Assembly (NCBI GenBank): GCA_030390025.1
Contig: CM059431.1
Location: forward strand, 137,704,001-137,768,000
Length of the DNA: 64,000 nucleotides
Direction of reading: 5' to 3'
Origin: Squalus acanthias
Taxonomy: Eukaryota
Part shown: positions 2,517 to 57,500 of the stretch, one piece after another
Numbering within the stretch: the stretch's first letter is position 1
How the letters are laid out: the number at the start of each line of letters is the position of its first letter
The notes under the pieces: model-generated
The model's input: only the letters and a program-made list of their open reading frames with translations
Database searches by the model: none
What the model was told of the DNA's origin: nothing
Made by a program: the position numbers and the translations under genes

Positions 2517-4223
2517 ATGGCACGGCCAGCAATTCTACAGATAAGGGACATTTCCTATCATTTTCTCGCAGCCTTTGGCGTTCCCGGTAAGTCAATGTAT
2601 CCTGTTGCCTAATAGCTGTGGACTATCTGAGTGTTAATGCAACATATTCTGAGAATGTCCTCATTGCAGATTCATTCTTCCACCGGGATCAGTCGCTAAA
2701 TATCAGCGGGAATCCTACCAGACCGCGCGGGCGCTGTTCTGGTGGGCAGATCCTTTGTACCGGGCGCTCAGCCTTCTTCCCTATACTAAGGGAGGGCGAG
2801 GCTATTTCCCTGGCCTCTCCAACCATGCATAGATCACTGAAGAACGTGTTGCTCAGTGTCTATAATATTCACCTCATTTGCGCCGTTGTTCCCTGTCTAT
2901 ATTAATGTGATAATTCCTCGGACTGCAGCCACCTCCACCCAACAGGGGGCTTTGAAAGATATTTTGAGAAATAATTTCCACTCAAGAAGATGCTCCACTC
3001 CCCTCGGCGGAATTTGGACATAAATTGTACGTTTTTGTCTCAGCTGAATGTTTCATTTGAATTATATCGTTCCATTAATTGCCGTGAAATTATTGTTATT
3101 ATTTGACAAAGACTGAGTGAAGTATGCTGGAAGGATGATGGATTTTCAGTCCCTCTATATTGAATGTCCAATGAATAATTTATGTTAAACAAAATACATT
3201 AACCCTCGCCTATATTCATGATAACAATCCGTGTGCATAACCCTAAGTAGGGACACATCTGAACATTTCCCCACAATATGCTGTGAGATTTATCTGAGTG
3301 ACCCCGTTACTGACCCCGTCTCCCTCTTTCTCACAGCGAACCTACTGACAATCGTGAATCTCTCCAGAGGAAACTGCGGCCTTTCCAAATGTATCTCTGT
3401 CTACATGGTGGCCCTGACAACAGCAGATCTACTGGTCATGATCATGAATATATTAGTGAATCGCATTTTACGTTATCACTTTCCACATTCCTTTCTGACC
3501 TACACTGTCGTTTGTAAGATCATTTTCTACCTGCAATGTGTCGCCCTGTATTTGTCGGTGTGGTTCACAGTCTCGTTCACATTTGACCCATTTGTAGCTA
3601 TATGTTGTGAGAGGTTTAAAACAAAGTATTGCACAGTGAGAACTGCGGCCGCGGTTATAACAACGGTGTCTGTCCTGATCTGTTTACAGAGCCTCGTGTT
3701 TTGGTTTGCCTTTGAACCTGAGCGAATCATTAACAATATTCACTGGGGTTGCCGACCCAGAGCGGAGTTTTCTTCATCGCCTGTAGGAGTGGCGTTTTCC
3801 TGGTTACGTAGCATTTGTTTTTCTTGGCTTAGTTTTGCTTTGACATTACTGTTTAATTGTTTGACAGCCAGACGTATTTTAGTGGCCAGTAGAGCCCGCA
3901 GGGCACTCCGGGGTCACAGCACTGAGAATCAGAGCGATCCAGAGATGGAGAACCGAAGGAAATCCATCATTTTACTGTTCAGTGTATCAGGCAGTTTTAT
4001 ACTGTTGTGGCTGACAACTATCGTTAGTAATTTAACTACCGGACTGACAAGCACCGTGCATTACCGAGGCGATTATGCAGCCCCTGCCTATATTGCCACT
4101 GAAACCGGATATATGCTCATGTATTTGAGTTCCTGTACAAACACATGTATTTATGCAGCTACTCAAACTAAATTCAGGGAAGAGCTGAAGCAGGTGATGA
4201 AAATTTCTTGGACATTTATTTGA
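2517..4223 (+). CDS. gpr139-like: GPR139-like class A orphan GPCR, 2 coding exons (2517-2586, 3337-4223), 318 aa; DRF motif changed to DPF and C-tail short
   Basis: Exon 1 MARPAILQIRDISYHFLAAFGVP ends at G|GTAAGT (2586/2587); acceptor CTCTTTCTCACAG| at 3336; phases match; seven hydrophobic segments with TADLL, FTFD(P)FVAIC, WGCRP, SSCTNTCIYA motifs. Confidence 0.88.
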
Positions 4224-5977: not shown

Positions 5978-6310
5978 TTTTTTTATTCGTTCATGGGAAG
6001 TGGACGTCGCTGGCAAGGCCAGCATTTATTGCCCGTCCCTAATTGCCCTTGAGAAGTTGCTGGTGAGCTGCCCTCTTGAACCGCTGCAGTCCCTGCGGTG
6101 AAGGTACTCCTACAGTGCTGTTAGGGAGGGAATTCCAGGATTTTGAGCCAGCGATGATGAAGGAACGGCGATATACTTCCAAGTCAGGATGGTATGTGAT
6201 TTGGAGGAGAACTTGGAGGTGGTGGTGTTCCCCTGCGCCTGCTGGGCATGTCCTTCTAGGTGGAAAAGCTCGCGGATTTGGAAGCTGCTGCCGAAGGAGC
6301 CTTGGCGAGT
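5978..6310 (-). mobile_element. 3' end of a CR1/L2-group LINE
   Basis: GCCAGCATTTATTGCCCGTCCCTAATTGCCCTTGAGAAG is shared with 26685-27535, where it leads into an RT remnant, and with 53925-54210; it interrupts the duplicated flank. Confidence 0.75.
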
Positions 6311-7269
6311 TAATTGGTACAAATGGTGCAGAAATAAAGACAGATTTATAATTAAAGTATTCACTTGGTTGAATTGCAATTAAAGGAACAATAGTGAAAT
6401 TATTGGTAATATAACGAACTAAGTAATTATACGGGTAAGCCCAAAGGAAAATGTCCTCTTTAAGTAAAGGAAACTATCATTTATGAGAAAAAGATGAGTC
6501 CATTAAATTTTCCTTATATGGAGTTGTATTTTTACTTCTATATGATTAGATAATGCAAAATTGTGAGGATTGATACGAAGAGGCAGTGGAAAAGTGACAG
6601 TTTGGAATGAGCATTCGCAATGGTCCTAGATACTGAGTTCAGAACTACAACACGTTTGAATCCCAAACCAACAATCAGCAGCTGTGATTGTAGTTAGTAG
6701 CTTTAATTGTATGTTTAATTACTATTGCATATACTGTGTGCTTAAAATACTTAGGCCACCTTATTTCAATGTTCAAGAACCTGATTGAAAACCTTTCGCT
6801 AACAATAGCTTCAGTACTTTGTGAATGAGCTTCATTTATTAATTGTGATTAAGTGCCCTCTTTACCCGCCAATCTTCAAATTTCCACTTGATCCTGAGCT
6901 TCTGTAAAAGCCAAACTCCACTTGGTTTCAAGTCTCTGTGGAGCCCAAATTTGTCAATCCGGCTGCCATCCAGCTTCTGGGGCAGTGATTATGAGTTTGG
7001 AGTAATTCTGTGTAACAGGCACATTCTCATTTAACTGGAGTCAGACGACCAACAGTACTTAAGGCACCAGTCAGGCTTCATGCAGAGATATCACTCCATC
7101 AGACTCAGATGCGATGTATCTGCACCCAGCTACAATCGTGAGGAGCCGATATGTAATCAACCACATCATCCAAAATCAAAAAGTAAAATAGAAAGCAAAG
7201 TTAACCATTACATTACCGTGTCAAATTCCATCCCATATGGTTGTGATTCTCGCCCTCGTTTCTAATTCA

Positions 7270-31036: not shown

Positions 31037-33966
31037 CTAGTTAGGACAGGAAGCTTTGTTTTGACTTTTCATTTTTTTACCCAATATCAGAATAAATGCC
31101 CAAGGAGATTTCACCAGCTTCTTCAGCTCTTCCCTGAATTTAGTTTGTGTAGCTGCATAAATACAAGTGTTTGTACAGGAACTCAAATACATCAGCAGAT
31201 ATCCGGTTTCAGTGGCGATGTAAGCAGGCGATATGTAATCGCCTCGGTGATGCACGGCCAGGTTGTTAACTATAAAACTCACGGCAGACGTCAGCCAAAA
31301 CAATACAAAACTGCCCGATACAGTGAACAGTAAAATGATGGATTTCCTTCGGTTCTCCATCTCTGGATCGCTCTGATTGTCACTGCTTTGACCCCGGAAT
31401 CCCCTGCGGGCTCTACTGGCCACTAAAATACGCCTGACTGTCAAACAATTAAGCAGTAATATCAAAACAAAAGGAAGCCACGTAATTAAAATATTTTCTA
31501 AGCGGAAGTAGGCTGCACCTGCAGGCGATGAAAAAAAGGCCACACTGGGGCGGAATCCCCAGGGAACGTTGTTGATTATTTGTTTGTGTTCATATGCAAA
31601 CCAAAATGGGATGTTCTCTAAATAAACCAGGACAGAGACCGTTGTTATAACCGCGGCCGCAGTTCTCACTGTGCAATACTTTGTTTTCAACTTCTGACAA
31701 CATATAGCTACAAATCGGTCAAATGTGAAGGAGACGGTAAACCACACTGACATATCCAGGTTGGCACTACACATATACATCATGAACTTACAAACGGCAG
31801 TGTAGGACAGGAATGAATATGGGAAATGTTTACTCAAAATGTGATATACGATTACATTGAGGATCATGACCAGTAGATCTGCTGTTGCCATGGCCACCAT
31901 GTAGACCGAGATACATTTGGAAAGGCCGCATTTTCCTCTGACGAGAATCACCATTGTCAACAGGTTCGCTGTAAGAAAGAGTGACAAGAGTAAGTAATGG
32001 AGACACTCGGATAAATCTTACATCGTATTGTGGGGAGATGAACCGAAGTGTTCCTACTGAAGGTTATGCACACGTTATTATATAGACGAACATTGACAAT
32101 CGACCTTTTCAAACGAAAATACTCATTAAACACTCAATATCGAGGGACTGAGAATGCGCCGTCCTTCCAGCACACTTCAGTCAGACTGTGTCAAATTGGT
32201 GGGTAGGGGTGGGTGCTGGGAGGGTCGCTCGTATTCAGTATCGGCAATGGTAACGGATAGTGACCCCAACACCACCGACAACCAGGCACTGATGGCTCAA
32301 CGGAGGGGAATTTTGACTTTGGGCGACAGTGTAAAACGGGCGACTCCGGATCAGCCGTTCATGATACATCTCTTCCGAATCAATCTCCATCGCTATCGCC
32401 ACTGACACTATATTCATGCATGAAAACAGAAAATTCTGGAAATACTCAGCAGGACAAGCATTATCTGTGGAGAGGAAAATAAAGTTTACGTTTCATGTTG
32501 AAACCATTCGTTTGAAATCCATTGAGGCTCCATTCACACTTTAACGCTGCGGTCCAGCTCAAGCCGCAGTCCCTGGCAGGGACGGTACAGTAACAGATTA
32601 AAGTCCCTTAAAGGGCAACCTTGGATGTTTCTGTAACTTGATAATTTTCACAGTCAATAAACAAGCGGATTCCCTTACATACACAAAAAGACACATTCCA
32701 TTGCAGTGTGGAGCGCTGAAATTTTCCCGCCATGAGGCTGGGACCATGTGATATACCGCGCCAATTTGATGAGTTACTACAGCGACCCGAGGGAGCAATC
32801 GATGGAATTTTACATTTACAAGCGGGATCTCGTGAGCGGCATCAGATGTCAGTTGTATTCAATATAATATACAAACAATTACTGGAAAGATATTAATTTA
32901 AATAAAACATTCAGCTGTGCCACAAACATTCGATGTACTTCGAAACTCTGCGATTTTACCATATAGAAACATAGAAACTAGGAGCAGGAGTAGGCCATTC
33001 GGCCCGTCGAGCCTGCTCCACCATTCAATACGATCATGGCTGATCATCCAAATCCAGTACCCTGTCCCTGCTTTCTCACACAGAATCCCCATCGAGCCTG
33101 CACCGACACATATCCCACCCTATCCCCGTAACCCCACGTATTTAATTCCCCCTAACATATCCCATCCTATCCCCGTAACCCCACACATTTAATCCCCCCC
33201 TAACACTAAGGGTCAATTTATCATAGCCAAATCAACCTAACCCGCACATTTTTGGACTGTGGGAGGAAACCGGAGCACCCGGAGGAAACCCACGCAGACA
33301 CGGGGAGAATGTGCAAACTCCACACAGACAGTCACCCGAGGCCAGATTCGAACCCGGGTCACTGGCGCTGTGAGGCACCAGTGCTAACCACTATGCCACC
33401 GTGTTGCCAAAATGTAGCTGCTCGGGAGCTGCTCGGGAGCTGGTGGAGGCGCGAAGGTTCTTTGCAGCGGAGGGGAGGGGAACAGCGCCCTGAGCGGCAA
33501 TTATTGCTCCAAATATCATTCACAGTCCTCTGATAGGAGGAGGTGGCTGCACTATAAGGAATTATCAACTTAAAGTAGATAGGGAACAACGGTACAGATG
33601 AAATGATTACCATGGACACCAAGCAACACATTCTTTAATGATCTATGTACTACTGGAGGGGCCGGGGAATCAGCCTCGCCCTTCCTCACTTTACGGAGGA
33701 AAGTTGAGTGCCCGGTGGCCACGATCGAGCGACCAGAACAGCGCCTCAGCGGCCCCGGGGACTGATAGGATTCCCGCTGATATTCACCGACTTATCCCGG
33801 TGGATCAATGACTCTGCAATGAGGACATGCTCGGAATATGTTACATTAACACTGAGATAGTCAACAGCTGTTAGACAACAGAATACATTGACTTACCGGG
33901 AGCCCCAAAGGTTGCGAGAACTGGGTAGTAAATTTGCTTTATCTGTAGAATTGTTGGCAGTTCCAT
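31037..33966 (-). CDS. gpr139-like: GPR139-like class A orphan GPCR, 2 coding exons (33966-33897, 31968-31037), 333 aa; ECL2 Cys replaced by Phe
   Basis: Exon 1 MELPTILQIKQIYYPVLATFGAP then G|GTAAGT; acceptor TTTCTTACAG|; same 70-nt first exon as the + copy; ATADLL, FDRFVAIC, SSCTNTCIYA motifs; frame open. Confidence 0.9.
32962..33075 (-). mobile_element. Short CR1 3' tail in the GPCR intron
   Basis: ATAGAAACATAGAAACTAGGAGCAGGAGTAGGCCATTCGGCCC. Confidence 0.8.
33080..33408 (-). mobile_element. tRNA-derived SINE (HE1/V-SINE-like) in the GPCR intron
   Basis: Minus-strand A box TGGCATAGTGG, B box GGTTCGAATC, then TGTGTGGAGTTTGCACATTCTCCCCGTGTCTGCGTGGGTTTCCTCCGGGTGCTCCGGTTTCCTCCCACAGTCC (V-domain-like). 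Confidence 0.88.
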
Positions 33967-34735
33967 TTTAAAAAACTGTGCGAAATCTGTCCAGCTTTAC
34001 GGTTCGGACTGGAGTGTATCTGAGATCAGTAAATACTCCCCATTTATAGAACAATCGGGGCCCAGGTCAGAAAAAAACATGTTACACAATAAGTGGCGTT
34101 AGTTACAGTCACTTAACAAACAAGGGGCGATTTTCCGCTTCAGTGCGCCCGGCCGCAAGTGGGGAAATTGTATGGAAAGTAATCCCAGAGGGAATGTGCC
34201 CTGCGCATGGTCCCTGAACGCTGAATGGAACATCCCTCCTGGTCTCTGCCTTAGGCTCTTGAGGTTTCAAATCCATTCGCTGAAAATCTTACTCATCCAT
34301 TGCATTAGCTAAATTTGTTTTTTTACTGCAATGATACCGAGTGATAATTCCGCTTTAATATTACTGGCAATGATTCATCGCTTACAATACTAGTGATGAC
34401 TCCTCTCTAACATTGCTGGCGGTGATCCTACTCTAATATTAATGGCAATGAGGCTACGCCGACTTTAATGCTGGTGATCCTATTCTACCGTTACTGGTGG
34501 TGATTATAATCTAAAATTACCGCTGGTAACCCAACATAAAAAAAAACTGGTTGATACCACTCTACCATTATTACTGGTAAAGATATACTAAAATTACTGA
34601 TGTTGATCTTATTGTAATTAATGGGGATGACCCTACTCCAGCATAATTGTAGTGACCATACTCTAACATTACTGGTCTTTGGTCCTACTCTAACATTAAT
34701 GGTGGTGACTCTACTCTACCATTATTGTGGTTAAC

Positions 34736-36313
34736 TTTAGAATTCGCAAAATTATCGCGATTTTATAATAACGAGAAGGAGACATAAAGTTTCGTATGAA
34801 CAGCTTTATTTCAGCAGAATGCTGTCATGTTTCAAAAGGGACACAAGCAGCCTGTAAAATGGCCACCACGCCTCGTGGCAGAAGGTTCTAGACTTTCAGT
34901 AGGCAGACAAGATGGCGTTTCATTAAACATTTCAGCAAGATCGGACAGGACTCAGCACATTGGAGATAATGACAAGACGCGATGGGTTTGCATTTTAAAC
35001 ATAAATACTGGAATCGGTTTTCCAGGTCTATTGTACTGGGCGATCAAGGACCCATCCAAAGACATTGATATGCGAATTCCCCACGGCTCTACGATGAGAG
35101 AGCCGTTCGCGGGTACTTACAGCAAGCATTTGGAAGCCCCAAAACCCCTCCAGGGAGACTCCTAGCCGGTTCCACAATGGGAGAAATATTAACGGGTACT
35201 CAGACACTTACAAGCATCACCGAGACCGATTAACGACAAGTACCACTCCATACAAGAAGATTGAGCACCAAAACATGACAAAAGATGGACATTAAGATTG
35301 GGCGGGAGATAAGGAATTACAGTACTATAAACTGTAGTGTCCAAACGTCCATCTTTCTCTTATCCTCTGGCTGTTCATCGTGCTCTTAGTCTTTACCACC
35401 GACTGGAGCTCTGGACTCTCATTCTCTGATCCACTGATTTTCCGGGAGTCAACCTCGTGGCTTGCCGCGAAGATCTGTGGAGAACTGGTCTGCGAAGGCC
35501 AGTAAAACGGGCGCACCATCCCGAGAAGTCGGTAAACGGTGTTGGAACCGAAGGCCCGAGAGGAGATGAGATGAGATGAGATGAGAAGAGAAGAAGACGA
35601 CAACACGTATCGCCACGGTCAGTAAGCCCCGACCGCGCCTGTAAATCGATTAGACTCTTCTTCGAGTTCTACTGAACCAGTGTAGGGCACAGGAAGACTC
35701 TTTTTCGAGTGGTGTCCGAACTCCGAGGTCAACACAGATCTTCATTGCAGCAGACGGTCCAGCCTGCTAGCCGGAGCAAAGCGAGTAAACAAGTGGGTTA
35801 CAGAGACCCCGGATCAACACGTGAATAGTCAGGTGTTGCCGAGCAGCGTTTTGGAATTCTCTGAGTTATCACGAGTGGTGAGCATGAGTCTCGATCCTAC
35901 AAATCTAGATTAGGACAGGTATTGATAGGGGAGGGTTTATGTTTTAAGGATAATTATAATGTGTGTCCCCTTTTACGATGTGTCGTGCGCTCCTCGTTTC
36001 CCTAAACCTAGTTGCATAAATGTGTGTAAGTTTGTACTGTCAGTAATCTGTGCTTATGACATGTATTTCGTAATCTTGAATAATATGCAATAAAGATTTT
36101 CCATTTCGCACTGTTCAACCGGGTCTAACTGAGTTTTTCTCTACATTATTGTTCTCGCACCTAAGTCCAGTGTCAGAACCGTAAGGGCGAGTGGGTCGAA
36201 CCACTCACAGGTGTCTCGTGCTACCAGGCTGGCTAGAGACCAGAATAGGCAACAAGGCCTAACCCCGCACTAGCACCCAGGCTAAGCACAGAGCCACGGC
36301 GAAACCCCTTACA
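34736..36313 (+). repeat. 5' LTR (1578 bp)
   Basis: Starts TTTAGAATTCGC (TG mutated to TT), ends CCCCTTACA; about 35 substitutions plus one 5-bp (GAGAT)n indel versus the 3' LTR by manual count. Confidence 0.96.
35295..35335 (+). promoter_or_regulatory. Candidate LTR promoter: inverted CCAAT/GC box and TATAAA (35326-35331)
   Basis: GATTGGGCGGG followed ~25 nt later by TACTATAAAC; TATA retained in the 3' LTR. Confidence 0.5.
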
Positions 36314-36318
36314 GACAA

Positions 36319-36336
36319 TGGCGACCACGAAGGGAC
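36319..36336 (+). promoter_or_regulatory. Primer-binding site, tRNA-Arg(UCG)-like
   Basis: TGGCGACCACGAAGGGAC 5 nt after the LTR; its reverse complement GTCCCTTCGTGGTCG-CCA matches, from memory, the 3' end of a vertebrate tRNA-Arg(TCG). Confidence 0.85.
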
Positions 36337-36379
36337 ACTGGCAGCGAGAAAATAATGTGTTAGACCTTGGTATGAATGG

Positions 36380-38140
36380 GTGAAATGTTATGGAAGAGGG
36401 AATAGCAGATTATGTTTTTGGAAAAGTGAATTTTCTAAGAGATGGATAAGTGACCTGCTGGTGGATAAGCGTCCACTAGAGGCAGCCATGAGGTGGACAG
36501 GTAGCAAGGAACATAAAAAATCTGTAGAGAAAGCTGTCTGGCTGATGTGTTATAAAAGGCAAGTCCAGATTTCGGACCAGGTCATCGTAGCGCAGGCAGC
36601 TCAGATCAATTGTTTGGAGGTGGAGATGGACGAGAAGGTCGCGAGGGGGCAGCAGCTCATCGCGTCTTTAAATGCGTTGCATCAGGAATGCCAGTTAGTC
36701 GCCAACCACCATGAGGCGAAAATAGATTACCTCGAGTGCCAGGTCACTGAGGCCAAATTAAATGAGGGCAGAATAAGGGAACGATGTGCCCGCCTAGCTG
36801 CTCAAATAAAAGCCCAGGAAGAGAGCTTAAAGGGGGTTAGGGCGGCATATAAGATGGCCCTCGAGGATAAACATGAGGGGGCCGACCACAGCGTCTGCCA
36901 GAGAGAGATAGGGAACCTTAAAGAGGCCCTGAATAAAGCGCACTGCATGGTGTGCCTCATCAGCCCGTCAGCGCACCAGCCGCAGGTGGGTGGGGAATTC
37001 CAAAAATCCCTACCAAACAAGGCACAGGAGGTATTTGCCACTGCACCCTCCGTGCCGCCCAGCTATTCGGCAACCTGGGTAAGGGAGGAAGTGGTAGAAG
37101 TAGAGGAAGAGGTCCCCGAGGTAGTACAGCTCCCGGAGGTAGTAGTGAAGCCGGGACCATTGTGCCCGCTTACAGGTATCAAGAGGGGCCCGAACGGAGA
37201 CGATGGGGAAGAGGGGAATCTCCTCAACCAGCTTGTGTTGCCTCACAGCGCACACCAGCTGAGGGCTATGATCAGCCACGTACGGAAGCTGTCCGAGTCA
37301 GACAACCCTTCCGTACATTTCAGGGAGGTAGAGCAGACCGCAGCCATTAACGGCTGCGACGATGGGGAAAGGGCAAAAATGCTGCTGGTCTCCTTAGACA
37401 GCTCGATCCTCCAGTGTCTCTCAGACGCGAGCAAAAGGGGAGATCATACCTATGGGGAATTGAGGGACGAGGTCCTGGAAGTGTTGGGAGCGGACGATGA
37501 AGGTTCGTTCGTTAGATTGGGACAGACAGTGCAGATGGAGGGAGAACCCCCGAAGGTTTTCACCGACAGGCTGTGGCCTGTCTATCAGCGTAGTTGCCCA
37601 GGCGCGCCCGAGCGTGTTGATTTAGACGGTGTTGGTTTAGCTCACTGGCTCAGATATATAGTACCCAACAGCTTACCAGCCGTGAGGGAGCAGGCAAAAG
37701 CGTGGTTTGATCCCAATAACGCCGCCACAACAGAGGAGTCGGTCCTAAATCGACTCACGGTAGGGTACCGTAATACTAGGAGCACGGGAGCGCGTCCCCT
37801 TAAGGGAAAGGTGCATGAGGCACGGCCCAGCGCCCCGGCTCAAAGGGAGTGGCATCAGGAGGGAAATCGCGTCCCACGAGCCAGTAATGCTTGTTTCGGG
37901 TGCGGAAAGACAGGGCACTGGCGCAACAACTGCAGGAACACTTGGAAAGAGTCCAGGGATAAAAATCCCGCAGCCCGAGCCCAGGTGCCTGCCCCCGATA
38001 AGGGAGCTGGTGTGCCTATCCATCCCGATGCGATAGAATCAATGCTGGGAGCCATGCGGACCCTCATGATTTCGCAAGGCTGGGTGACAGTCGCTACCGG
38101 CCCCGCAGATGCCGCAGCCCCATCTGCCGGTACCCAATGA
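36380..38140 (+). CDS. gag: Gag polyprotein (coiled coil, capsid-like region, CCHC zinc knuckle); start uncertain (frame open from 36356, first ATG 36488)
   Basis: Long ORF directly after the PBS; CFGCGKTGHWRNNC (CX2CX4HX4C) at 37892-37933; heptad-rich N-terminal third. Confidence 0.9.
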   Translation: MKCYGRGNSRLCFWKSEFSKRWISDLLVDKRPLEAAMRWTGSKEHKKSVEKAVWLMCYKRQVQISDQVIVAQAAQINCLEVEMDEKVARGQQLIASLNALHQECQLVANHHEAKIDYLECQVTEAKLNEGRIRERCARLAAQIKAQEESLKGVRAAYKMALEDKHEGADHSVCQREIGNLKEALNKAHCMVCLISPSAHQPQVGGEFQKSLPNKAQEVFATAPSVPPSYSATWVREEVVEVEEEVPEVVQLPEVVVKPGPLCPLTGIKRGPNGDDGEEGNLLNQLVLPHSAHQLRAMISHVRKLSESDNPSVHFREVEQTAAINGCDDGERAKMLLVSLDSSILQCLSDASKRGDHTYGELRDEVLEVLGADDEGSFVRLGQTVQMEGEPPKVFTDRLWPVYQRSCPGAPERVDLDGVGLAHWLRYIVPNSLPAVREQAKAWFDPNNAATTEESVLNRLTVGYRNTRSTGARPLKGKVHEARPSAPAQREWHQEGNRVPRASNACFGCGKTGHWRNNCRNTWKESRDKNPAARAQVPAPDKGAGVPIHPDAIESMLGAMRTLMISQGWVTVATGPADAAAPSAGTQ

Positions 38141-39253
38141 CTAGAGCCCACGCAGCCTGCCTACCTGTGTCCTTTTAAAAGACACGCACAGGAGGGGGTC
38201 TCCTGTGAGGAGGCCAGGTTAAAAGAGCAGGCCCTGCGGGAGGAAAACGCCCGCTTAATAGGGAAAGTAGACGAGCTAGAAGGGCAGCTTAGAGAGCAGG
38301 CCTTACGGGAGCAGAACGCCCGCTTAATGGGGAAAATAGATGGGCTAGAAGGGCAGCTTAGAGAGATAAAAGCAGCCTGCAGGGTAGCCAGAAGCAGGAA
38401 GTATGAGGATTTTAACCAGTGCAAGCTGTATAAGCCGGGTGCACAAGGGCAAACCACAGGGGCCAAACCTGTGAGTAGGGACTCGCAGCCCCGGGTAGGG
38501 CCACAGGGCACACAGGCAGGCAAAGCAGCTGACATCAGGGGAGAGGACATCCTAGCAAAATGTAGGATCCTTTATTGGGGTTGGGAGTCAGATGAGGAAG
38601 AGTTCGAGGAGCTCGACCAAGATCGTGACACAAGCGAAGAGGAGCTGGAATCGGAGGACGAAAGGGTCGCCACCGATTCAGGTAAAGGGAAGATAGGGAC
38701 TGCAGATGGAGATCCACACAGGGTGGAGACAGAAGCTGCAGGTCCCGAACTCAGTGGGGCGGGGCTAGGGGAGGCGGAGCCAGCGGCTGTAGTGGGACCA
38801 CAGGACGTGGCAATGGAAGCCTCAGAACCCAGTTCGTCCGACTTGAACGTCTTGCCCTCGAGGGAGGTAGGGACTGCGAGTGAAGGTCCGCCTACTGGGC
38901 CAAGTAGGGCGGTGTCAGAGGCTGCAGATCCCGAGTTCAGGGAGGCGGATTCAGGGGAGGCGGAGCCAGCGACTGTGGTGGGACCACGGGTCGCCACGGT
39001 GGAAGTCTTGAAACCCGGTCCGTCAGTCCTGGAGTTCCTGCCCACGGTAGTTCCCCGTAGGTCAAGTCGGACACCCCAGCCCAGGATGATGTGGGTAAGT
39101 CCCCAGAGTGTCCCAAGGCGTAGGGTCAAGGCTAAGGCAGCCCAGGGAGATCCCAGTCCCAGCGCAGCAGCAACAGGCTGCGGCAGATCAAAGGGAGGGG
39201 TCAGCACCCTCCCACCGTTGGGAAAAGCTTGTGGCCGCCTTCACAGAATTTGA
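38141..39253 (+). CDS. Gag readthrough extension ('ORF X', 370 aa) in the pol position: duplicated Gag-like coiled coil, acidic repeats, basic tail
   Basis: Same frame as gag; I translated 38141-38326 with no stop, joining the listed ORF 38327-39253; gag stop context CAA-TGA-CTA-G. Confidence 0.72.
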   Translation, partial: LEPTQPAYLCPFKRHAQEGVSCEEARLKEQALREENARLIGKVDELEGQLREQALREQNARLMGKIDGLEGQLREIKAACRVARSRKYEDFNQCKLYKPGAQGQTTGAKPVSRDSQPRVGPQGTQAGKAADIRGEDILAKCRILYWGWESDEEEFEELDQDRDTSEEELESEDERVATDSGKGKIGTADGDPHRVETEAAGPELSGAGLGEAEPAAVVGPQDVAMEASEPSSSDLNVLPSREVGTASEGPPTGPSRAVSEAADPEFREADSGEAEPATVVGPRVATVEVLKPGPSVLEFLPTVVPRRSSRTPQPRMMWVSPQSVPRRRVKAKAAQGDPSPSAAATGCGRSKGGVSTLPPLGKACGRLHRI

Positions 39254-39482
39254 GTAGGCCGCCCTGGGAACGGGCGGCGCTGTACAGTTTATAAGATAAG
39301 TGATAAGTTTTAGTTTGGAAGTTTTGTAAGCTTTATATTAAATGTTAATAAGTAAAAGTAATGATGGGCGTTTAGATTAGGTTTAGTTAAAAGATCTATC
39401 CAGTGCACATGTCTTCTTACGTGAGGCGAGGTCAGGGGACCCGCTCACCCTTCACAAAAGCCAGAGACTCTTGGGAGGCTGG

Positions 39483-39506
39483 CTACCTCATTCTATCTGA
39501 TCACAG
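39483..39506 (+). promoter_or_regulatory. Candidate env splice acceptor
   Basis: CTACCTCATTCTATCTGATCACAG|G, 13 nt before the env ATG at 39520 (AGGATGG). Confidence 0.5.
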
Positions 39507-39519
39507 GAACCAAGGAAGG

Positions 39520-41945
39520 ATGGAACGGATTCTGGTAGAGCTCACGGCACTTGGATGTGGATTGGCCTATCGAGGCCGCACCAAGGATGTTGTGGTGTTT
39601 GGATGCTCCGGTGACACGGCCCCCATCGCGGTGGATGGGACCGGGAGAAGAGAGGCTGAGGAGACCGCCACTGATTTCCACAAGGGAAGGTGGCCAGGAT
39701 GGCTGGGAACGAATTCCACTGAGTATTCCAGTACATCGGGATTTGCCTACAAAGAGACTTCTTTAATGTGCCCCAAAGTGAGGATCATCGCACCCAGAGT
39801 CAGCGTCACCTTCGGCAAACGGATTTGTTTGACTTGTAATGGGAATGTCCCATTGAGCCGATGGTGGTGGCTATGAAAGCTGAGCAAAAACATGAGGAAA
39901 TCTTCGGTCGAGTGGGAGCGACTGGATAATAATACCCATCGGACAATTACGGGGACTGACGGACAATTGAAAGTCTGTTGGGACAAATGGTGGGAACCGG
40001 ATGAGGGAATTTATGTGTGTATGTGGGGGTCGAAGCACGTCTGCCCCAAAGGCATCTCCATATTTTTCATCAATCAGTGGCAGGATAATGGGAAAGGGAT
40101 GAGGTGGGATGCAAGCACCAGGGGGTGCGGGGCTCCATACTCTCCGATCCCGGTAAATGCCACTGAACTCATTACGCGCCCACACAAGGCCCCGCCCACA
40201 ATTCCGGTGGTTCTAGCTAAGGAAGAAGGGTGCCCTAAAACCAGTAAGGGACCCGGGAATGGTTTGGTACTGGTCCCTACAGACAAGCTACTGTTTCAGG
40301 GGGTACATTATGTGGTGGCTTCGGTGATTTTAAATCTCACCGAGATGCGGTTGCCAGAATGGTGCCCCAAAGAGACGGAACAATTGTACCAGGTCCTGTT
40401 GACCAAGATGTTTAGGCAATTTTATGAGTTCGATTTCGCGGAAATTGATAAAACGAGTTTGTACACCGCACCACATGAAGTTTTGGGCCAGGTGGGGAGG
40501 CAAAGAAGGGGTATTGTGAACGATATGTTCACCGCTTTTAATACAGGAACATCTGTGGTCAACGCTCTAGACAACGTGGAGCTGCAGACCCAGGTTAATG
40601 GTTTAAAAACACAATTAAAGAATATCCTCACCGACGAAAATAAGGTGGTTGGGTCTGGGTTACATGAGGACAAGGCCATGACTCTCCATTTGAAGGAAAA
40701 TATTGCTGAGCTGGAGAAACATGCGCGTACGGTAAATGCCCTGATTAGGGAAGATCGGAATGCATCCGATCAAGCTGCGCAGAACGAGGTGTGCGTACTA
40801 TACGGGGCGTGGTTACTGGGCGAGGGCCGCAGTAATTTAAAGGATTTAAAACAAGGTTTGGTCCCCTCCTGGATAAGTAACAAACACCTGCAGGTGCTCC
40901 ACCCTTTTCAGAATGCATTAAGTCCGTGCCAGCTCAGGCTAGCTTCAGAAGCATACCCAGTCCCCGTGGACTGCGGACGATCAAACCACACCATTATGGG
41001 TGTAGTTTTACGTATGCCGGTTTTGGGCGACACAGCAAAGACCGCCCCGGTATATCGGGTAGAGAACATTGGTGTTATTCAGGGGGGAGCCCACATTCGC
41101 TATGCAGCGGTTCCACCTTACGTCATCCGCTGGGAGCAAACGATGACAGGTACAGATCTCTCTGGTTGTCGTGGCAGGGGAGCACACATAATCCTGTGTC
41201 CCCAGCACTTTATTGCCTTTTTAGCACTACAGTGCGGGTTCAGAACGGCTGGCGCCAAGCCCATGAATTGCACCATGGAGGCAATGGCACAAGATCATGT
41301 GCCTCCGCAGGTAGCATACATCGGGGTGGAACATATTGTGTTACCACTGCAGCGCAACTCTACCAGCATGGAAAGCGTAGCCGGTGTCCGGTGAGTGACA
41401 GCAGTTTCTGTTTTAAACCCAGGGCTGAAGTTCAAGTGGCACAGCAGCGAATTGTCCCGATCCCTGAACCATCCACTGTTCATCTAACAGTAAAAGAGAA
41501 TTTTACCGACTTGCAGCGATTCGTCGCGCATTTCGGATACCTCATTCCCCCTCTCCCTGAACACCTCACCAAACTTTTGAAAGCCGTAGCGGTTTCGCAG
41601 AAACATTTTTATACCCTTGAGCAAAAGACCGTCGAGATAGGGTCAGAGATCCTAGACATAGTAATCCCGCCGTGGTGGGATCTGTTCACCAACATTGAAG
41701 TGCCTTCCTGGATTAGAATAGCCTCCCACATTTTAGTTCTATGCCAGGTAATAATTGTAGTGTACCTATTGGTCGTGCATTGCAAGAGGGGCAAGCGCCT
41801 CACCAAACAGGAAAACACGGGAGAGTGGCGAGAGCGTTACGTGCGCGTGCACGAAGAAAGCGCCTGCGTAAATGACCAGAGTGACGTCACTCCAGTTTTT
41901 TCATGTGTGTCTCGAATTTGTTTACGGATTGTTATTTTTTCTTAG
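39520..41945 (+). pseudogene. env: env: signal peptide, Ig-like domain, F-type class I fusion glycoprotein, TM anchor (~808 aa reconstructed); one in-frame stop (39874) and one frameshift (~41323-41326)
   Basis: ORFs 39403 and 39892 share a frame; furin site RQRR|GIVNDMFTAFNTG at 40498-40510; heptad repeat; Cys-rich middle; TM IASHILVLCQVIIVVYLLVVHC; 8 N-x-S/T sequons. Confidence 0.87.
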
Positions 41946-42306
41946 AACCTGTAATTAAGTTTGGAACTCTATATGTTTAAGAGTTGTTTTAATTGTTTTG
42001 TTTTGGTGTTGTTGAATTATGGTTGTTTGATTGTTTGGTTTTTCTTTTCCTTGAATAAAAAAATAAACACATGCATATACAGGTGGTGCAAGAGGCATCG
42101 GCCTGTCACACATGGAGGACAAACACGCGGTGTAAGTTAAAGGCAGATGCTGCCTACGGTTATAAGAATGTAATTTTTCCCTGGGAAATAAGGACGACAC
42201 GGAGACCCTAGATAGTTTTAAGTTAAGGGAGTATTTGGATATGGAGAATCGAGATAATATTGCTCACCACAATGTTTTTGATATGATAAGCGGAGTTATT
42301 CGCATC

Positions 42307-42318
42307 AACAGGAGGGAC
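42307..42318 (+). promoter_or_regulatory. Polypurine tract
   Basis: AACAGGAGGGAC immediately before the TG of the 3' LTR. Confidence 0.7.
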
Positions 42319-43901
42319 TGTAGAATTCGCATAATTATCGCGATTTTATAATAACGAGAAGGAGACATAAAGTTTCGTATGAACAGCTTTATTTCAGCAG
42401 AATGCTGTCATGTTTCAAAAGGGACACAAGCAGCCTGTAAAATGGCCGCCACGCCTCGTGGCAGAAGGTTCTAGACTTTCAGTAGGCAGACAAGATGGCG
42501 TTTCATTAAACATTTCAGCAAGATCGGACAGGACTCAGCACATTGGAGATAATGACAAGACGCGATGGGTTTGCATTTTAAACATAAATACTGGAATCGG
42601 TTTTCCAGGTCTATTGTACTGGGCGATCAAGGACCCATCCAAAGATATTGATATGCGAATTCCCCACGGCTCTAGGATGAGAGAGCCGTTCGCGGTGACT
42701 TACAGAAAGCATTTGGAAGCCCCAAAACCCCTCCAGGGAGACTCCTAGGCGGTTCCACAATGGGATAAATATTAACGGGTACTCCGACAGTTACAAGCAT
42801 CACCGAGACCGATTAACGACAAGTACCACCCCATACAAGAAGTTTGAGCGCCAAAACATGACAATAGATGGACATTAAGATTTGGGGAGAGATAAGGAAT
42901 TACAGTACTATAAACTGTAGTGTCCAAACGTCCATCTTTCTCTTATCCTCTGGCTGTTCATCGTGCTCTTAGTCTTTACCACCGACTGGAGCTCCGGACT
43001 CTCATTCTCTGATCCGCTGATTTTCCGGGAGACAACCTCGTGGCTTGCCGCGAAGATCTGTGGAGAACTGGTCTGCGAAGGCCAGTAAAACGGGCGCACC
43101 ATCCCGAGAAGTCGGTAAACGGTGTTGGAAACGAAGGCCCGAGAGGAGATGAGATGAGATGAGACGAGATGAGAAGAGAAGAAGACGACAACACGTATCG
43201 CCACGGTCAGTAAGCCCCGACCGCGCCTGTAAATCGATTAGACTCTTCTTCGAGTTCTACCGAACCGGTGTAGGGCACAGGAAGACTCTTTTTCGAGTGG
43301 TGTCCGAACTCCGAGGTCAACACAGATCTTCATGACAGCAGACGGTCCAGCCTGCTAGCCGGAGCAAAGCGAGTAAACAAGTGGGTTACAGAGACCCCAG
43401 ATCAACACGTGAATAGCCAGGTGTTGCCGAGCAGCGTTTCGGAATTCTCCGAGTTATCACGAGTGGTGAGCATGAGTCTCGATCCTACAAATCTAGATTA
43501 GGACAGGTATTGATAGGGGAGGGTTTATGTTTTAAGGATAATTATAATGTGTGTCCCCTTTTACGATGTGTCGTGCGCTCCTCGTTTCCCTAAACCTAGT
43601 TGCATAAATGTGTGTAAGTTTGTACTGTCAGTAATCTGTGCTTATGACATGTATTTCGTAATCTTGAATAATATGCAATAAAGATTTTCCATTTCGCACT
43701 GTTCAACTGGGTCTACCTGAGTTTTTCTCTACATTATTGTTCTCGCACCTAAGTCCAGTGTCAGAACCGTAAGGGCGAGTGGGTCGAACCACTCACAGGT
43801 GTCTAGTGCTACCAGGCTGGCTGGAGACCAGAATAGGCAACAAGGCCTAACCCCGCACTAGCACCCAGGCTAAGCACAGAGCCACGGCGAAACCCCTTAC
43901 A
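42319..43901 (+). repeat. 3' LTR (1583 bp)
   Basis: TGTAGAATTCGC...CCCCTTACA followed by TSD CAAC (43902-43905). Confidence 0.96.
43677..43682 (+). terminator. Candidate LTR polyadenylation signal
   Basis: AATAAA (36089-36094 in the 5' LTR) followed by GT/T-rich sequence. Confidence 0.55.
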
Positions 43902-54574: not shown

Positions 54575-57500
54575 CTCAAATAAAAACAGAACATGCTGGA
54601 GATACTCAGCATGTCAGGCAGCATCTGTGAAGAGAGAAACAGAGTTAACTTTTCAGGCAGAACTGGAAAAAAGCAGGAAATGGAACAGATTTTTAAGCAA
54701 GTGTAGGGTCTGGGAAATGGGGGGGGCGGGTGGGGTGAAAGAACAAAAGGGAAGGTCTGTGATAGGAGAGATGGCAGGAGAGGTTAAGAGACATTAAGAG
54801 ATATTCAAGGCAAAAGGAGATGGTAATGGGACAGGTTAAGAAACAAAGGATGGCTCTAGATGATGTGTAAATTGCGCTGGCAGAATGAAAGGCAGCTGCC
54901 ATGTGGGAGAGAAGAGAGAAAGACACCGACAAAAAGTGTGGATAAAACACATATATATGATTGGGGCCTAGGTTATGTTCTTAAATTGTTGAATTCTATG
55001 TTGAGTCCAGAAGGCTGTAAAATGCCTACTCGGAAGATGAGTTGCTGTTCCTTGAGCTTACGCTGAGCTTTAGTGGAACAATGCAAGGGGCCGAGGACGG
55101 TGAGGTCTGAGTGGGAGTGGAGCGGAGAATTAAAGTGACAGACGACCGGAAGCTCGGTGTCCCCCTTACGGACTGAACGGAGATGTTCCTCAAACGGTCA
55201 CCCAATCTGCGTTTGGTCTCCCCAATGTAGAGGAGACAGCATCGTGCGCAGCGAATACAGTACACTAAATGGCAAGAGGTACAAGTAAATCGCTGTTTTT
55301 CCTGGAAGGGGTGTTTGGGGCCCTGGTCACTGGGAAGTGGTAAGGTATAAGGGCATGTGTTGCATCTCCTGTGCTTGCATGTGAAGGTGCCGGGCGAAGG
55401 GAAAGGGGTGTTGGGGGTGATACAGGAGATGCATTGCTGATCATCTTCCAACATTCGATGGAATCTGGAACTGTACCCATGGATTGGAGGGTAGCTAATG
55501 TTACCCCACTATTCAAAAAGGGTGGTAGAGAGAAAGCGGGGAATTACAGACCGGTAAGCCTGACATTGGTAGTGGGGAAAATGCTAGAGTCCATTATAAA
55601 GGATGTAATAGCTGAGCACTTGAAAAACAGTGACAGGATCGGACAAAGTCAACATGGATTTACAAACGGTAAATCGTGCTTGACTAAACTAATGGAATTT
55701 TTTGAGGATTTAACTGGCAAAATAGATTTGGGAGAACCAGTAGATGTGGTATATTTGGACTTTCAAAAGGGTTTCCATAAGGTCCCGCATAATAGATTAG
55801 CGTGTAAAGTTAAGACACATGGGATTGGGGGAAAGGTATTGACTTGGATAGAGAACTGGTTGGCGGACAGAAAGCAGAGAGTAGGAATTAATGGGTCTTT
55901 TTCCGAGTGGCAAGCAGTGACTAGTGGGTTACCGCAGGGATCGGTTCTTGGACCTCAGCTATTCACAATATACATTAATGATCTAGATTAAGGAACTAAA
56001 TGTAATATCTCCAAGTTTGCAGATGACACAAAGCTGGATGGGAGTGTGTGCTGCGAGGAGGATACCGAGAAACTCCAGGATGATTTGGACAGTTTGGGTG
56101 AGTGGCCAGAAGCGTGGCAGATGCAATATCACGTGGATAAATGCGAGGTTATCCACTTTGGTGTCAAAAACAGAAAGGCAGACTATTATCTGAATGGCAA
56201 TAGATTGGGAGAAGGGGAAGTGCAACGAGACCTGGATGTCCTTGTGCACCAGTCGCTGAAGGTAAGCATGCAGGTGCAGCAGGCGGTGAAGAAGGCAAAT
56301 GATATGTTGGCCTTCATAGCGAAAGGGTTTGAGTATAGGAACAGGGATGTCCTGCTGCAGTTGTACAGCGCCTTGGTGAGACCACACCTTGAGTACTGTG
56401 TGCAGTTTTCGTCGCCTTATCTGAGGAAGGATGATCTTGCCATAGAATGAGTTCAGCGAAGATTCACAAGACTGCTACCTGGGATGGCAGGAATGACATA
56501 TGAGAAGAGATTGGGTCGATTGGGCTTATACTCGCTGGAGTATAGAAGAATGAGAGGGGATCTCATCGAAACATATAAAATTCTGACAGGTCTGGACAAA
56601 CTAAATGCAGGAAGAATGTTCCCGATGGTCGGAGAGTCCAGAACCAGGGGTCATAATCTAAGGATAACGGGTAAGCCATTTAGGACAGAAATGAGGAAGA
56701 ATTTCTTCACCCAGAGAGTGGTGAACCTGTGAAATTCTCTACCACAGAAGGTAGTTGAGGCCAAGTCATTAAATATATTCAAGAATGAGTTATAGATATA
56801 TTTCGTAAAGCTAAAGGTATCAAGGGATATGGGGAGAAGGCAGGTACAGGGTACTGAGTTTGGATGATCAGCCATGATCTCAACGAATGGCGGAGCAGGC
56901 TCGAGGGGCCGAATGGCCTACTCCTGTGGGGGTCAGTGGGCTTGTAGTGAATGTTTGTCAATAGCCTATCCCCATAGATGGAGACGGAGAATTCGAGGAA
57001 GGGAAGGGAAGAGTTGGAGATGGACCATGTGAAGGTGAGGGAAGGGTGGAATTTGGAAGCGAACTGAATGAAATTACCTACTTCTGGGCGAGAGCAGGAA
57101 ACGGCACCGATACAGTCATCGATGTACCGGAAAAAAGAGGTGAGGAATGGGACCTGAGTAGAACTGGAACAAAGAGTGTTCCACATATCCCACGAAAAGG
57201 GAGGCATAGCTAGGACCCATGCGGGTTCACATAGCGACACCTTTGATTTGTAGGAAGTGAGTGGAGTCAAATGAGAAGTTGTTCAATGTGAGAACAATTT
57301 CAGCCAGGCGGAGGGGGCGGTCCTGGATGGGGACTGGTTGGGCCTTTGTTCAAGGACGAAGCGGATCGCCCTCAGGCCATCCTGGTGGGGGATGGAGGTG
57401 TAGAGGGTTTGTATGTCCATAGTGAAAAGGAGGCGGTTGGGGCCAGGGAACTGGAAACTAGCGGAAGCTGAACGCCAACTCTCCGACACCTCTAGTTACC

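Follow-up and report, generated by a model that had tools for sequence, protein, structure and literature searches.

What does a gag stop codon in a leaky context lead into when no protease, reverse transcriptase (RT) or integrase follows it? The question is raised by a defective provirus in a 64,000-nucleotide stretch of the Squalus acanthias genome (GenBank assembly GCA_030390025.1, contig CM059431.1, positions 137,704,001 to 137,768,000 of the forward strand), which we call the window and whose first letter is position 1. The original prediction for this locus held that the gag stop, UGA followed by CUAG, is a readthrough signal, and that the element had kept the Gag-Pol recoding switch but used it to produce a minor fusion of Gag to a 370-residue non-Pol protein, called X here. 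The evidence set out below makes it probable that the element is a non-autonomous derivative of an endogenous retrovirus (ERV), in which the readthrough site of an autonomous relative (the helper) leads into a selected, gutted Pol (delta-Pol) of 11 + 80 + 279 codons. The retained switch feeding a new downstream frame thus stood, in that the helper has the same site and the frame is under selection, whereas the nature of X had to be revised to that of a gutted Pol, in which only a small helix is foreign.

At the locus, gag ends with the codons ACC (38132-38134), CAA (38135-38137), TGA (38138-38140), CTA (38141-38143) and GAG (38144-38146). Translation of 36488-39253 in a single frame gives 550 amino acids, one stop and 370 amino acids, closing at the TGA at 39251-39253. 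Both the gag end and the open frame are therefore present in the sequence and its translation as they had been described, and the anticipated size of the fusion, about 920 residues from the ATG at 36488, agrees with the 921 codons of this frame if the gag stop is decoded. The continuity had been said to be masked by an open reading frame (ORF) track that starts X at a methionine. This is true of the ATG-started list, where X begins at 38327, whereas the stop-to-stop list gives 36356-38140 and 38141-39253, which adjoin in the same frame.

The origin of the stop became apparent from 30 loci picked because they resemble the last 312 residues of gag. In seventeen of them the match to the window ends at 38172, beyond which the sequences differ. 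All 17 (16 distinct contexts) carry TGA-CTAG and, behind it, an in-frame protease and RT, LEPAQPVYLCPLSYDAW...LLDTGAS...YVDDLLL, with the stop 36 codons ahead of LLDTGAS. This frame is open to the end of the approximately 1.47 kb examined in 11 of the 17 loci and has stops or frame breaks further on in the others. At one helper place, extended by 3.4 kb, 1496 open codons follow the stop and run on into integrase and a long C-terminal tail. Pfam recognizes RVP, RVT_1, RT_RNaseH, RNase_H, Integrase_H2C2, rve and an SH3_Tf2-1-like domain in the helper pro-pol, and the nearest solved structures to the helper RT are the MLV/XMRV and foamy-virus RTs. The tail of the helper is known from this one locus, and gag of the extended copy is open for only 350 codons.

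As the helper needs Pol, its TGA-CTAG must be read through, a conclusion that is indirect but strong. Since only this UGA-CUAG interrupts the frame that gag and pro-pol share, Gag-Pro-Pol would be made by readthrough, and the presence of the stop followed by in-frame pro-pol at 17 of 17 loci identifies the site as the Gag-Pro-Pol readthrough switch of the family. The idea that the defective element retained a Gag-Pol recoding switch is borne out by these autonomous copies, which show the same TGACTAG and then protease (LLDTGAS) and RT (YVDDLLL) in frame.

The autonomous form is very young and numerous, because a 391-nucleotide query from the helper integrase region gave 1871 first-look candidates and 40 of 40 scored matches were 99-100% identical. 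Such near-identity is a very recent burst. Defective copies, in contrast, are 91-97% like the window copy, so that their family seems to be older or more varied than the helper copies now present.

A BLAST comparison of the helper with the window shows what X consists of. Helper positions 11-2471 correspond to window 35722-38172 at 93.6% identity, and helper 6091-7250 to window 38414-39569 at 94.4%; between them, 3619 nucleotides of the helper are replaced by 241 (38173-38413) in the defective element. The difference, 3378 nucleotides, is 3 x 1126, so that the frame is kept across the replacement and the readthrough site now leads into a delta-Pol that ends at pol's own stop. The defective element has lost RT, RNase H, all but the first 11 codons of the protease, and the integrase through its SH3-like domain. 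The parts of the fused frame, all on the forward strand, are the following.

36488..38137, +, gag ORF, 550 codons when counted from the first ATG; its N-terminal region is helical, and a single CCHC knuckle lies close to the C-terminus

38138..38144, +, TGA + CTAG, the gag/pro-pol readthrough site of the family, found intact at 37 defective and 16 helper places, 53 of the 54 distinct ones

38141..38172, +, first 11 codons (32 nucleotides) of the helper protease frame; helper homology stops at 38172 in 17 of the 30 gag-chosen loci

38173..38413, +, insert of 241 nucleotides, about 80 residues, absent from the helper

38414..39253, +, pol tail: the last 279 codons and pol's own TGA stop, in the same frame as the 1496-codon pro-pol ORF of the helper

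X is therefore not a non-Pol protein. It is composed of 11, about 80 and 279 codons, so that 290 of its 370 codons are Pol, its tail ends at pol's stop, and only the approximately 80 codons of 38173-38413 are foreign.

The pol tail follows the integrase SH3-like domain (...WFHVNQCKLYKPGAQG...) and is 94% identical to the helper at the DNA level. It belongs to no Pfam family. When the whole of X was compared by phmmer with 1.84 billion representative sequences, the sole relative was P0001, a protein of 266 amino acids from a 5-kb Logan contig, which matches the pol tail with an E-value of 5.6e-30. P0001 starts with an integrase end and continues into the related tail; it is 43% identical to the helper over 315 residues, with well conserved ends and a variable acidic middle. 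Since a related tail stands behind an integrase end in P0001 too, the tail is a real, conserved Pol extension of this lineage.

The insert contains two 69-nucleotide (23-codon) tandem units at about 38225-38293 and 38294-38362, and it was found at approximately 1542 first-look places in the genome. AlphaFold2, run on the single sequence, predicts residues 22-95 of X to be one helix (predicted local distance difference test, pLDDT, of 81-98 in ten-residue blocks), and most of the rest of X has a pLDDT below 50. The insert has no blastn or tblastx match in the helper stretch or the rest of the window, no relative was found when it was searched alone among longer proteins, and in the ESM Atlas it gave only generic zipper-like clusters with scores of at most 0.85. 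Similarly, a word-indexed search of proteins of near length found no relative of X. These searches gave no cellular gene from which the insert could derive, and a diverged source is possible. The coiled coil of Rab11-FIP3 was considered as the origin of X and rejected, because its Pfam match (E-value of 0.0014) falls below the cut-off.

Is X a protein on which selection acts? Of the 148 genome matches to X residues 1-140, 105 are free of stops within the match and open for 360 codons or more, with amino acid identities to the window copy as low as 80%. The lengths of X fall into recurrent classes: 370 codons (38 copies), 372 (15), 368 and 367 (9 each), 369 and 371 (5 each), 381 and 374 (4 each) and 387 (3). 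Hence, subfamilies that differ by insertions or deletions have all kept the frame. In an alignment of 36 copies, the stops and clear frame-breaking indels of X are each private to one copy, so the neutral build-up of stops that would speak against the original prediction is not seen. The exception is a set of single-nucleotide insertions at a G-rich run near 38754 in L023, L041 and L065, a place that cannot be aligned with certainty. Clearly shared between copies of X are the loss of one 69-nucleotide repeat unit (2 copies) and an indel of 9 nucleotides (3-4 copies); an 18-nucleotide deletion is common to 7 copies in the C-terminal part of gag.

We then compared the ratio of nonsynonymous to synonymous differences (pN/pS) between regions, using the pooled Nei-Gojobori method on 33 copies and 95% confidence intervals from a codon bootstrap. 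Five copies with rearrangements or large indels (L037, L038, L059, L060 and L068) were excluded. The values are as follows, with confidence intervals in brackets.

gag C-terminal part (37055-38137), gag frame: 0.32 (0.24-0.40)

whole X: 0.52 (0.41-0.67)

first 11 codons + insert: 0.32 (0.18-0.55)

insert alone: 0.31 (0.17-0.53)

pol tail: 0.61 (0.45-0.80)

The other two frames of these regions gave 0.79-1.66, and those of the insert 0.93-1.66. X thus evolves between copies below neutrality, both as a whole and in its insert. The 39 codons between the gag stop and the first in-frame ATG have a pN/pS of 0.25 (0.11-0.55), compared with 0.71 and 1.45 off frame. Among sites that vary in at least two copies, codon positions 1, 2 and 3 account for 52, 51 and 74, whereas singletons are distributed flatly (62, 63 and 58). 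As the helper has no insert, the constraint on the insert cannot come from the helper by recombination. As far as comparison between copies can tell, frame-specific purifying selection on X, including the insert found only in the defective element and the 39 codons ahead of the first AUG, is shown.

It could nevertheless be argued that the frame was left open by luck, that X is under no selection and that any Gag-X is a functionless by-product. The replacement had a prior chance of 1 in 3 of retaining the frame, and the family is so young (LTRs, long terminal repeats, 97.5% identical and copies 91-97% alike) that few stops are expected anyway. Private disabling changes are about as frequent in the C-terminal part of gag (7 of 28 copies) as in X (5 of 28), and the tail has both a low pLDDT and no Pfam family. 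However, luck does not easily account for an insert pN/pS of 0.31-0.32 in the X frame only, for shared indels that are in frame while the clear frame-breaking changes are private, for several length classes that all keep the frame open, or for the enrichment of shared variable sites at third codon positions. We therefore regard a passive relic as unlikely.

A subtler possibility is that only the openness of the frame matters. Ribosomes in transit over its 1.1 kb would clear UPF1 and so spare the RNA from nonsense-mediated decay, a type of shielding described for readthrough elements in the part of that literature we drew on (PMC6277124). Retention of both the stop and the open frame fits this idea, and so does the weak constraint on the tail (0.61). 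But openness, apart from the avoidance of stops, predicts a pN/pS near 1, whereas the insert and the codons ahead of the ATG are at 0.25-0.32, as low as gag, and the first 40 residues of X are nearly fixed when the peptides of the 33 copies are viewed together. Such a shield is accordingly quite improbable.

The same 39 codons bear on whether X could be made alone, from an internal AUG (38258 or 38327) or a spliced RNA, with normal termination at the gag stop. The first in-frame ATG is at 38258 in 24 of the 33 copies and at 38327 in the other 9, and it is at 38327 that the ATG-started list begins X in the window copy. The window copy, however, has no ATG at 38258, the codons that precede the first ATG are constrained in the X frame, and the helper must read through an identical site to obtain Pol. 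Independent production of X is hence very improbable. All three of these explanations are made less likely by the low pN/pS of the insert and of the codons that precede the first AUG. Our preferred reading is readthrough into a selected delta-Pol.

The stop itself was compared at 54 distinct genomic places with the junction. TGACTAG is kept at 53 of them, and the remaining one has TGACTAT together with a stop at X codon 2. TGA is present at 54 of 54 places, so that none of them has the sense codon at 38138 that would turn the stop of the window copy into a simple nonsense mutation. In 30 copies picked by DNA similarity to 38000-39300, GTACCCAATGACTAGA is invariant and the flanking bases vary; the 16 nucleotides of 38130-38145 are invariant in 30 of 30 copies, compared with 51% invariant columns across 37055-39300. 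In 127 gag matches the open frame never exceeds 647 amino acids. One of the 148 X matches (L070, 88% identical, G000:C2868:315300-318300, minus strand) has a fused Gag-X frame of 759 codons. It has lost 24 nucleotides including the T of TGA, and gag and X are thus fused directly in frame without readthrough.

The context of the stop resembles that of known readthrough sites. The passages of Loughran et al. (2014, PMC4132726) that we used report that UGA_CUAG with 12 nucleotides of 3' sequence is enough for maximal readthrough of four human genes, that readthrough values range from about 3.5% (MDH1) to about 31% (OPRL1), that UGA is the best stop for the CUAG motif, and that a purine at -1 helps. 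The base at -1 of the stop is A here. Minimum free energy folding of the 123 nucleotides after the stop, a method blind to pseudoknots, gave a z-score of +1.1 for the helper, which is not significant. For the defective element the z-score is a modest -2.16, a stability that 7 of 200 shuffled sequences also reach. A covariation test of the downstream fold would require more variation than the copies show.

Several observations weigh against a selected readthrough protein and temper our confidence in it. The invariant 16-mer at the stop is only the joint fourth or fifth longest invariant run in 37055-39300 (25, 19, 19, 16 and 16 nucleotides), and the conservation of the site alone is therefore suggestive but not decisive. 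L070 persists without the stop, which is consequently not strictly required for the persistence of a copy. A long-range or pseudoknotted stimulator beyond 38172, had one escaped detection, would have been lost in the defective element. In 7 of 25 copies the G run of gag at about 36644-36648 has a different length, so that many copies could not make the full fusion, and of 30 X-chosen copies only 5 have a fully intact gag (36500-38137) together with a fully intact X. The sample is not random but consists of the copies most similar to the window copy. The pN/pS pairs are non-independent, and the bootstrap, which is not tree-based, covers codon sampling only. The weak constraint on the tail could come in part from exchange with helper lineages, and frame retention at the replacement, as already mentioned, has a 1 in 3 chance by itself. 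Finally, translation and readthrough are deduced here from comparative sequence evidence. Among the sequencing runs listed, none is recorded as RNA. Contigs from four runs of unknown kind cover the stretch at 88% likeness, some of them crossing the stop into the insert (38130-38322, for example), but they cannot show transcription.

Since X is selected as a coding region, a Gag-deltaPol readthrough protein is likely. On the full-length RNA of a defective copy, most ribosomes would terminate at the UGA, with Gag as the product. The few percent that decode the UGA would run 370 codons further, which would give a Gag-deltaPol of about 921 residues. Like Gag-Pro-Pol, this protein could join particles by means of its Gag part. 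The retained protease codons and the end of gag probably hold the nucleocapsid/protease cleavage site, so that the helper protease could release X. The helix might take the place of the dimer contact that went with the protease, and the tail might keep the usual role of an integrase tail. Gag-deltaPol would aid the spread of the defective element, perhaps in cis like the fusion protein of the mouse IAP 1-delta-1 element. Arguing from the gag-pol fusion of IAP 1-delta-1, we prefer a cis-acting or decoy role for X.

A more specific version of the decoy role is possible, if on balance doubtful. A self-associating helix would replace the protease-RT-integrase core, with nothing but the C-terminal tail of integrase retained, and the protein would occupy the few Gag-Pol slots of helper particles or bind the helper integrase or its chromatin partner, which would bias packaging or integration in favour of the RNA of the defective element. 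If true, this would be a hyperparasite adaptation built on a translational recoding site, and it would explain why the defective family is numerous and much more diverse than the present copies of the helper (91-97% compared with 99-100% identity).

Gamma- and epsilon-type retroviruses as a rule make Gag-Pro-Pol by readthrough. The helper is organized like them (MoMLV, WDSV and the ERVs of fish and frogs), with gag and pro-pol in one frame and a single stop just upstream of the DTGA motif. The signal is different. Gammaretroviruses use UAG and a pseudoknot, according to the sections of a 2026 review (PMC13517186) that we drew on. Other contexts given in these sections are UGAAGA (SSSV), UGACGA (ZFERV), UGAAGU (toad ERV) and UAGGGC (SnRV). 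A stimulatory pseudoknot of the gammaretroviral type stands about 8 nucleotides after the stop; the helper has no significant local fold there, pseudoknots being outside the method. A UGA-CUAG retrovirus is absent from the retroviral contexts there, and CUAG occurs once, in a non-retroviral passage (PMC13517186). A full-text literature search also found nothing that joins UGA-CUAG readthrough with retroviruses, although absence from print is not proven thereby. The closest counterparts in signal are the UGA-CUAG genes of vertebrates (OPRL1, OPRK1, MAPK10, AQP4 and MDH1) and some alphaviruses, which have the identical UGACUAG and a purine at -1; in these genes, as in the element, the protein-coding signature runs on past a conserved stop. 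What differs here is that the signal serves a polyprotein of a retrovirus and the gutted form derived from it, and that the genome contains thousands of copies.

The defective element itself is closest to mouse IAP 1-delta-1. As an element of this kind, it shares LTRs and gag with an autonomous relative in the same genome and has none of the pol enzymes. It is similarly numerous, with approximately 1542 first-look places for the insert compared with 1871 for the helper integrase region. The portion of the literature consulted on IAP 1-delta-1 (PMC6466679) states that its fusion protein acts in cis and that 1-delta-1 elements cause most new IAP insertions despite needing helper proteins. There, however, gag and pol are fused directly by a 1.9-kb deletion, whereas here gag is whole and the fusion relies on readthrough. 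Furthermore, unlike in IAP 1-delta-1, all catalytic domains are gone, about 80 new helical codons have been added and env is kept. The gag-onc transducing retroviruses also carry a foreign coding sequence in frame behind gag in a helper-dependent genome. Unlike in these, no cellular source of the 241-nucleotide insert was found in the searches described above, the insert is short and helical, and the element forms a germ-line family of many copies. Retroviral readthrough and defective elements with gag-pol fusions are both known, and the gutted Pol behind a UGA-CUAG switch is a new form of these.

The usual view is that non-autonomous retroelements require no more than cis signals and, in some cases, Gag. 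Here, a derivative with about 1500 places keeps the switch and a selected frame although every enzyme has been removed. A selected Gag-deltaPol, if real, would be a second parasite-specific protein that exploits a helper, after that of IAP 1-delta-1, and in this case one made by recoding. For the family as a whole, it appears that a vertebrate ERV with recent activity obtains its Pol via UGA-CUAG without an evident downstream fold. Judged against the contexts in the sections of the review cited above, this widens the known retroviral readthrough signals and provides a natural, minimal test case. The 279-residue tail behind integrase, which P0001 also has, is an undescribed Pol module, and its retention in an element without integrase gives a handle on its function.

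The defective element spans 34734-43901 and has gag, the 370-codon frame X and an env-like gene between its LTRs. No protease, RT or integrase is present between the LTRs, where Pfam gives only the weak CCHC knuckle of gag. The remaining features of the provirus are given below.

34734..36313, +, 5' LTR, paired with 42317-43901 by self-BLAST at 97.5% over 1585 nucleotides

39391..41945, +, env-like gene, broken by an in-frame stop at 39874-39876 and by a change of frame between the 39877-41394 and 40881-41945 frames

42317..43901, +, 3' LTR, the self-BLAST partner of 34734-36313

A sequence that starts with TGG just inside the 5' LTR (36314-36340, GACAATGGCGACCACGAAGGGAC) has the look of a putative primer-binding site. 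No clear target-site duplication was seen at the LTR ends as defined by BLAST. A 26-nucleotide tandem repeat array, kilobases long, extends from 43859 to about 47000 and starts within the end of the 3' LTR or its flank.

The host genome of 3.7 Gb contains many copies of the family: the junction gave 2613 first-look candidates, the stretch 38000-39300 gave 4229 and the C-terminal part of gag 7024, all of them rough lower bounds. The C-terminal 350 amino acids of gag align to the helper gag. Its Pfam zf-CCHC match, at residues 468-483, is weak and under the curated cut-off, and a search among longer proteins gave no relative of gag. The G run at 36644-36648, which differs in length by 1 or 2 nucleotides in the 7 copies mentioned above and breaks the gag frame there, may be a slippage hot spot or a homopolymer assembly error. 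This run also affected a comparison that at first seemed to make X better conserved than gag (6 of 30 copies with intact gag, 25 of 30 with intact X). We rejected that comparison because the gag breaks are mostly locus-edge artefacts, rearranged 5' parts (five loci) or the variable G run.

The env-like gene has an RQRRG motif about 200 residues into its 500-residue ORF, followed by a long C-terminal part, a layout that recalls fusion glycoproteins with a short N-terminal subunit. Its two pieces in the broken copy gave no Pfam match at E-values up to 1 and no sequence match in the PDB at E-values up to 10. The short N-terminal part, the RQRRG motif and the lack of a known family recall the description of lokiretroviruses in the portion of PMC7947760 that we consulted. 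The Env similarity that defines lokiretroviruses, to the paramyxovirus fusion glycoprotein (PF00523), was not found in the broken env copy by Pfam at E-values up to 1.

Two intronless ORFs of rhodopsin-family receptors flank the region, at 3225-4223 on the forward strand and 31037-32017 on the reverse strand (Pfam 7tm_1, E-values of 3e-18 and 5e-20). Positions 33470-34173 match 3005-2308 at 78% on the opposite strand, which indicates that the receptor neighbourhood has been duplicated and inverted. Between 10001 and 22000, a strong and constant strand skew (AT approximately 0.41-0.46, GC approximately 0.20-0.25) over twelve kilobases suggests another satellite or a long low-complexity block. 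An unrelated RT fragment is located at 55344-55991 (Pfam RVT_1, E-value of 9.5e-23), within a GC-rich patch that has several short ORFs on both strands.

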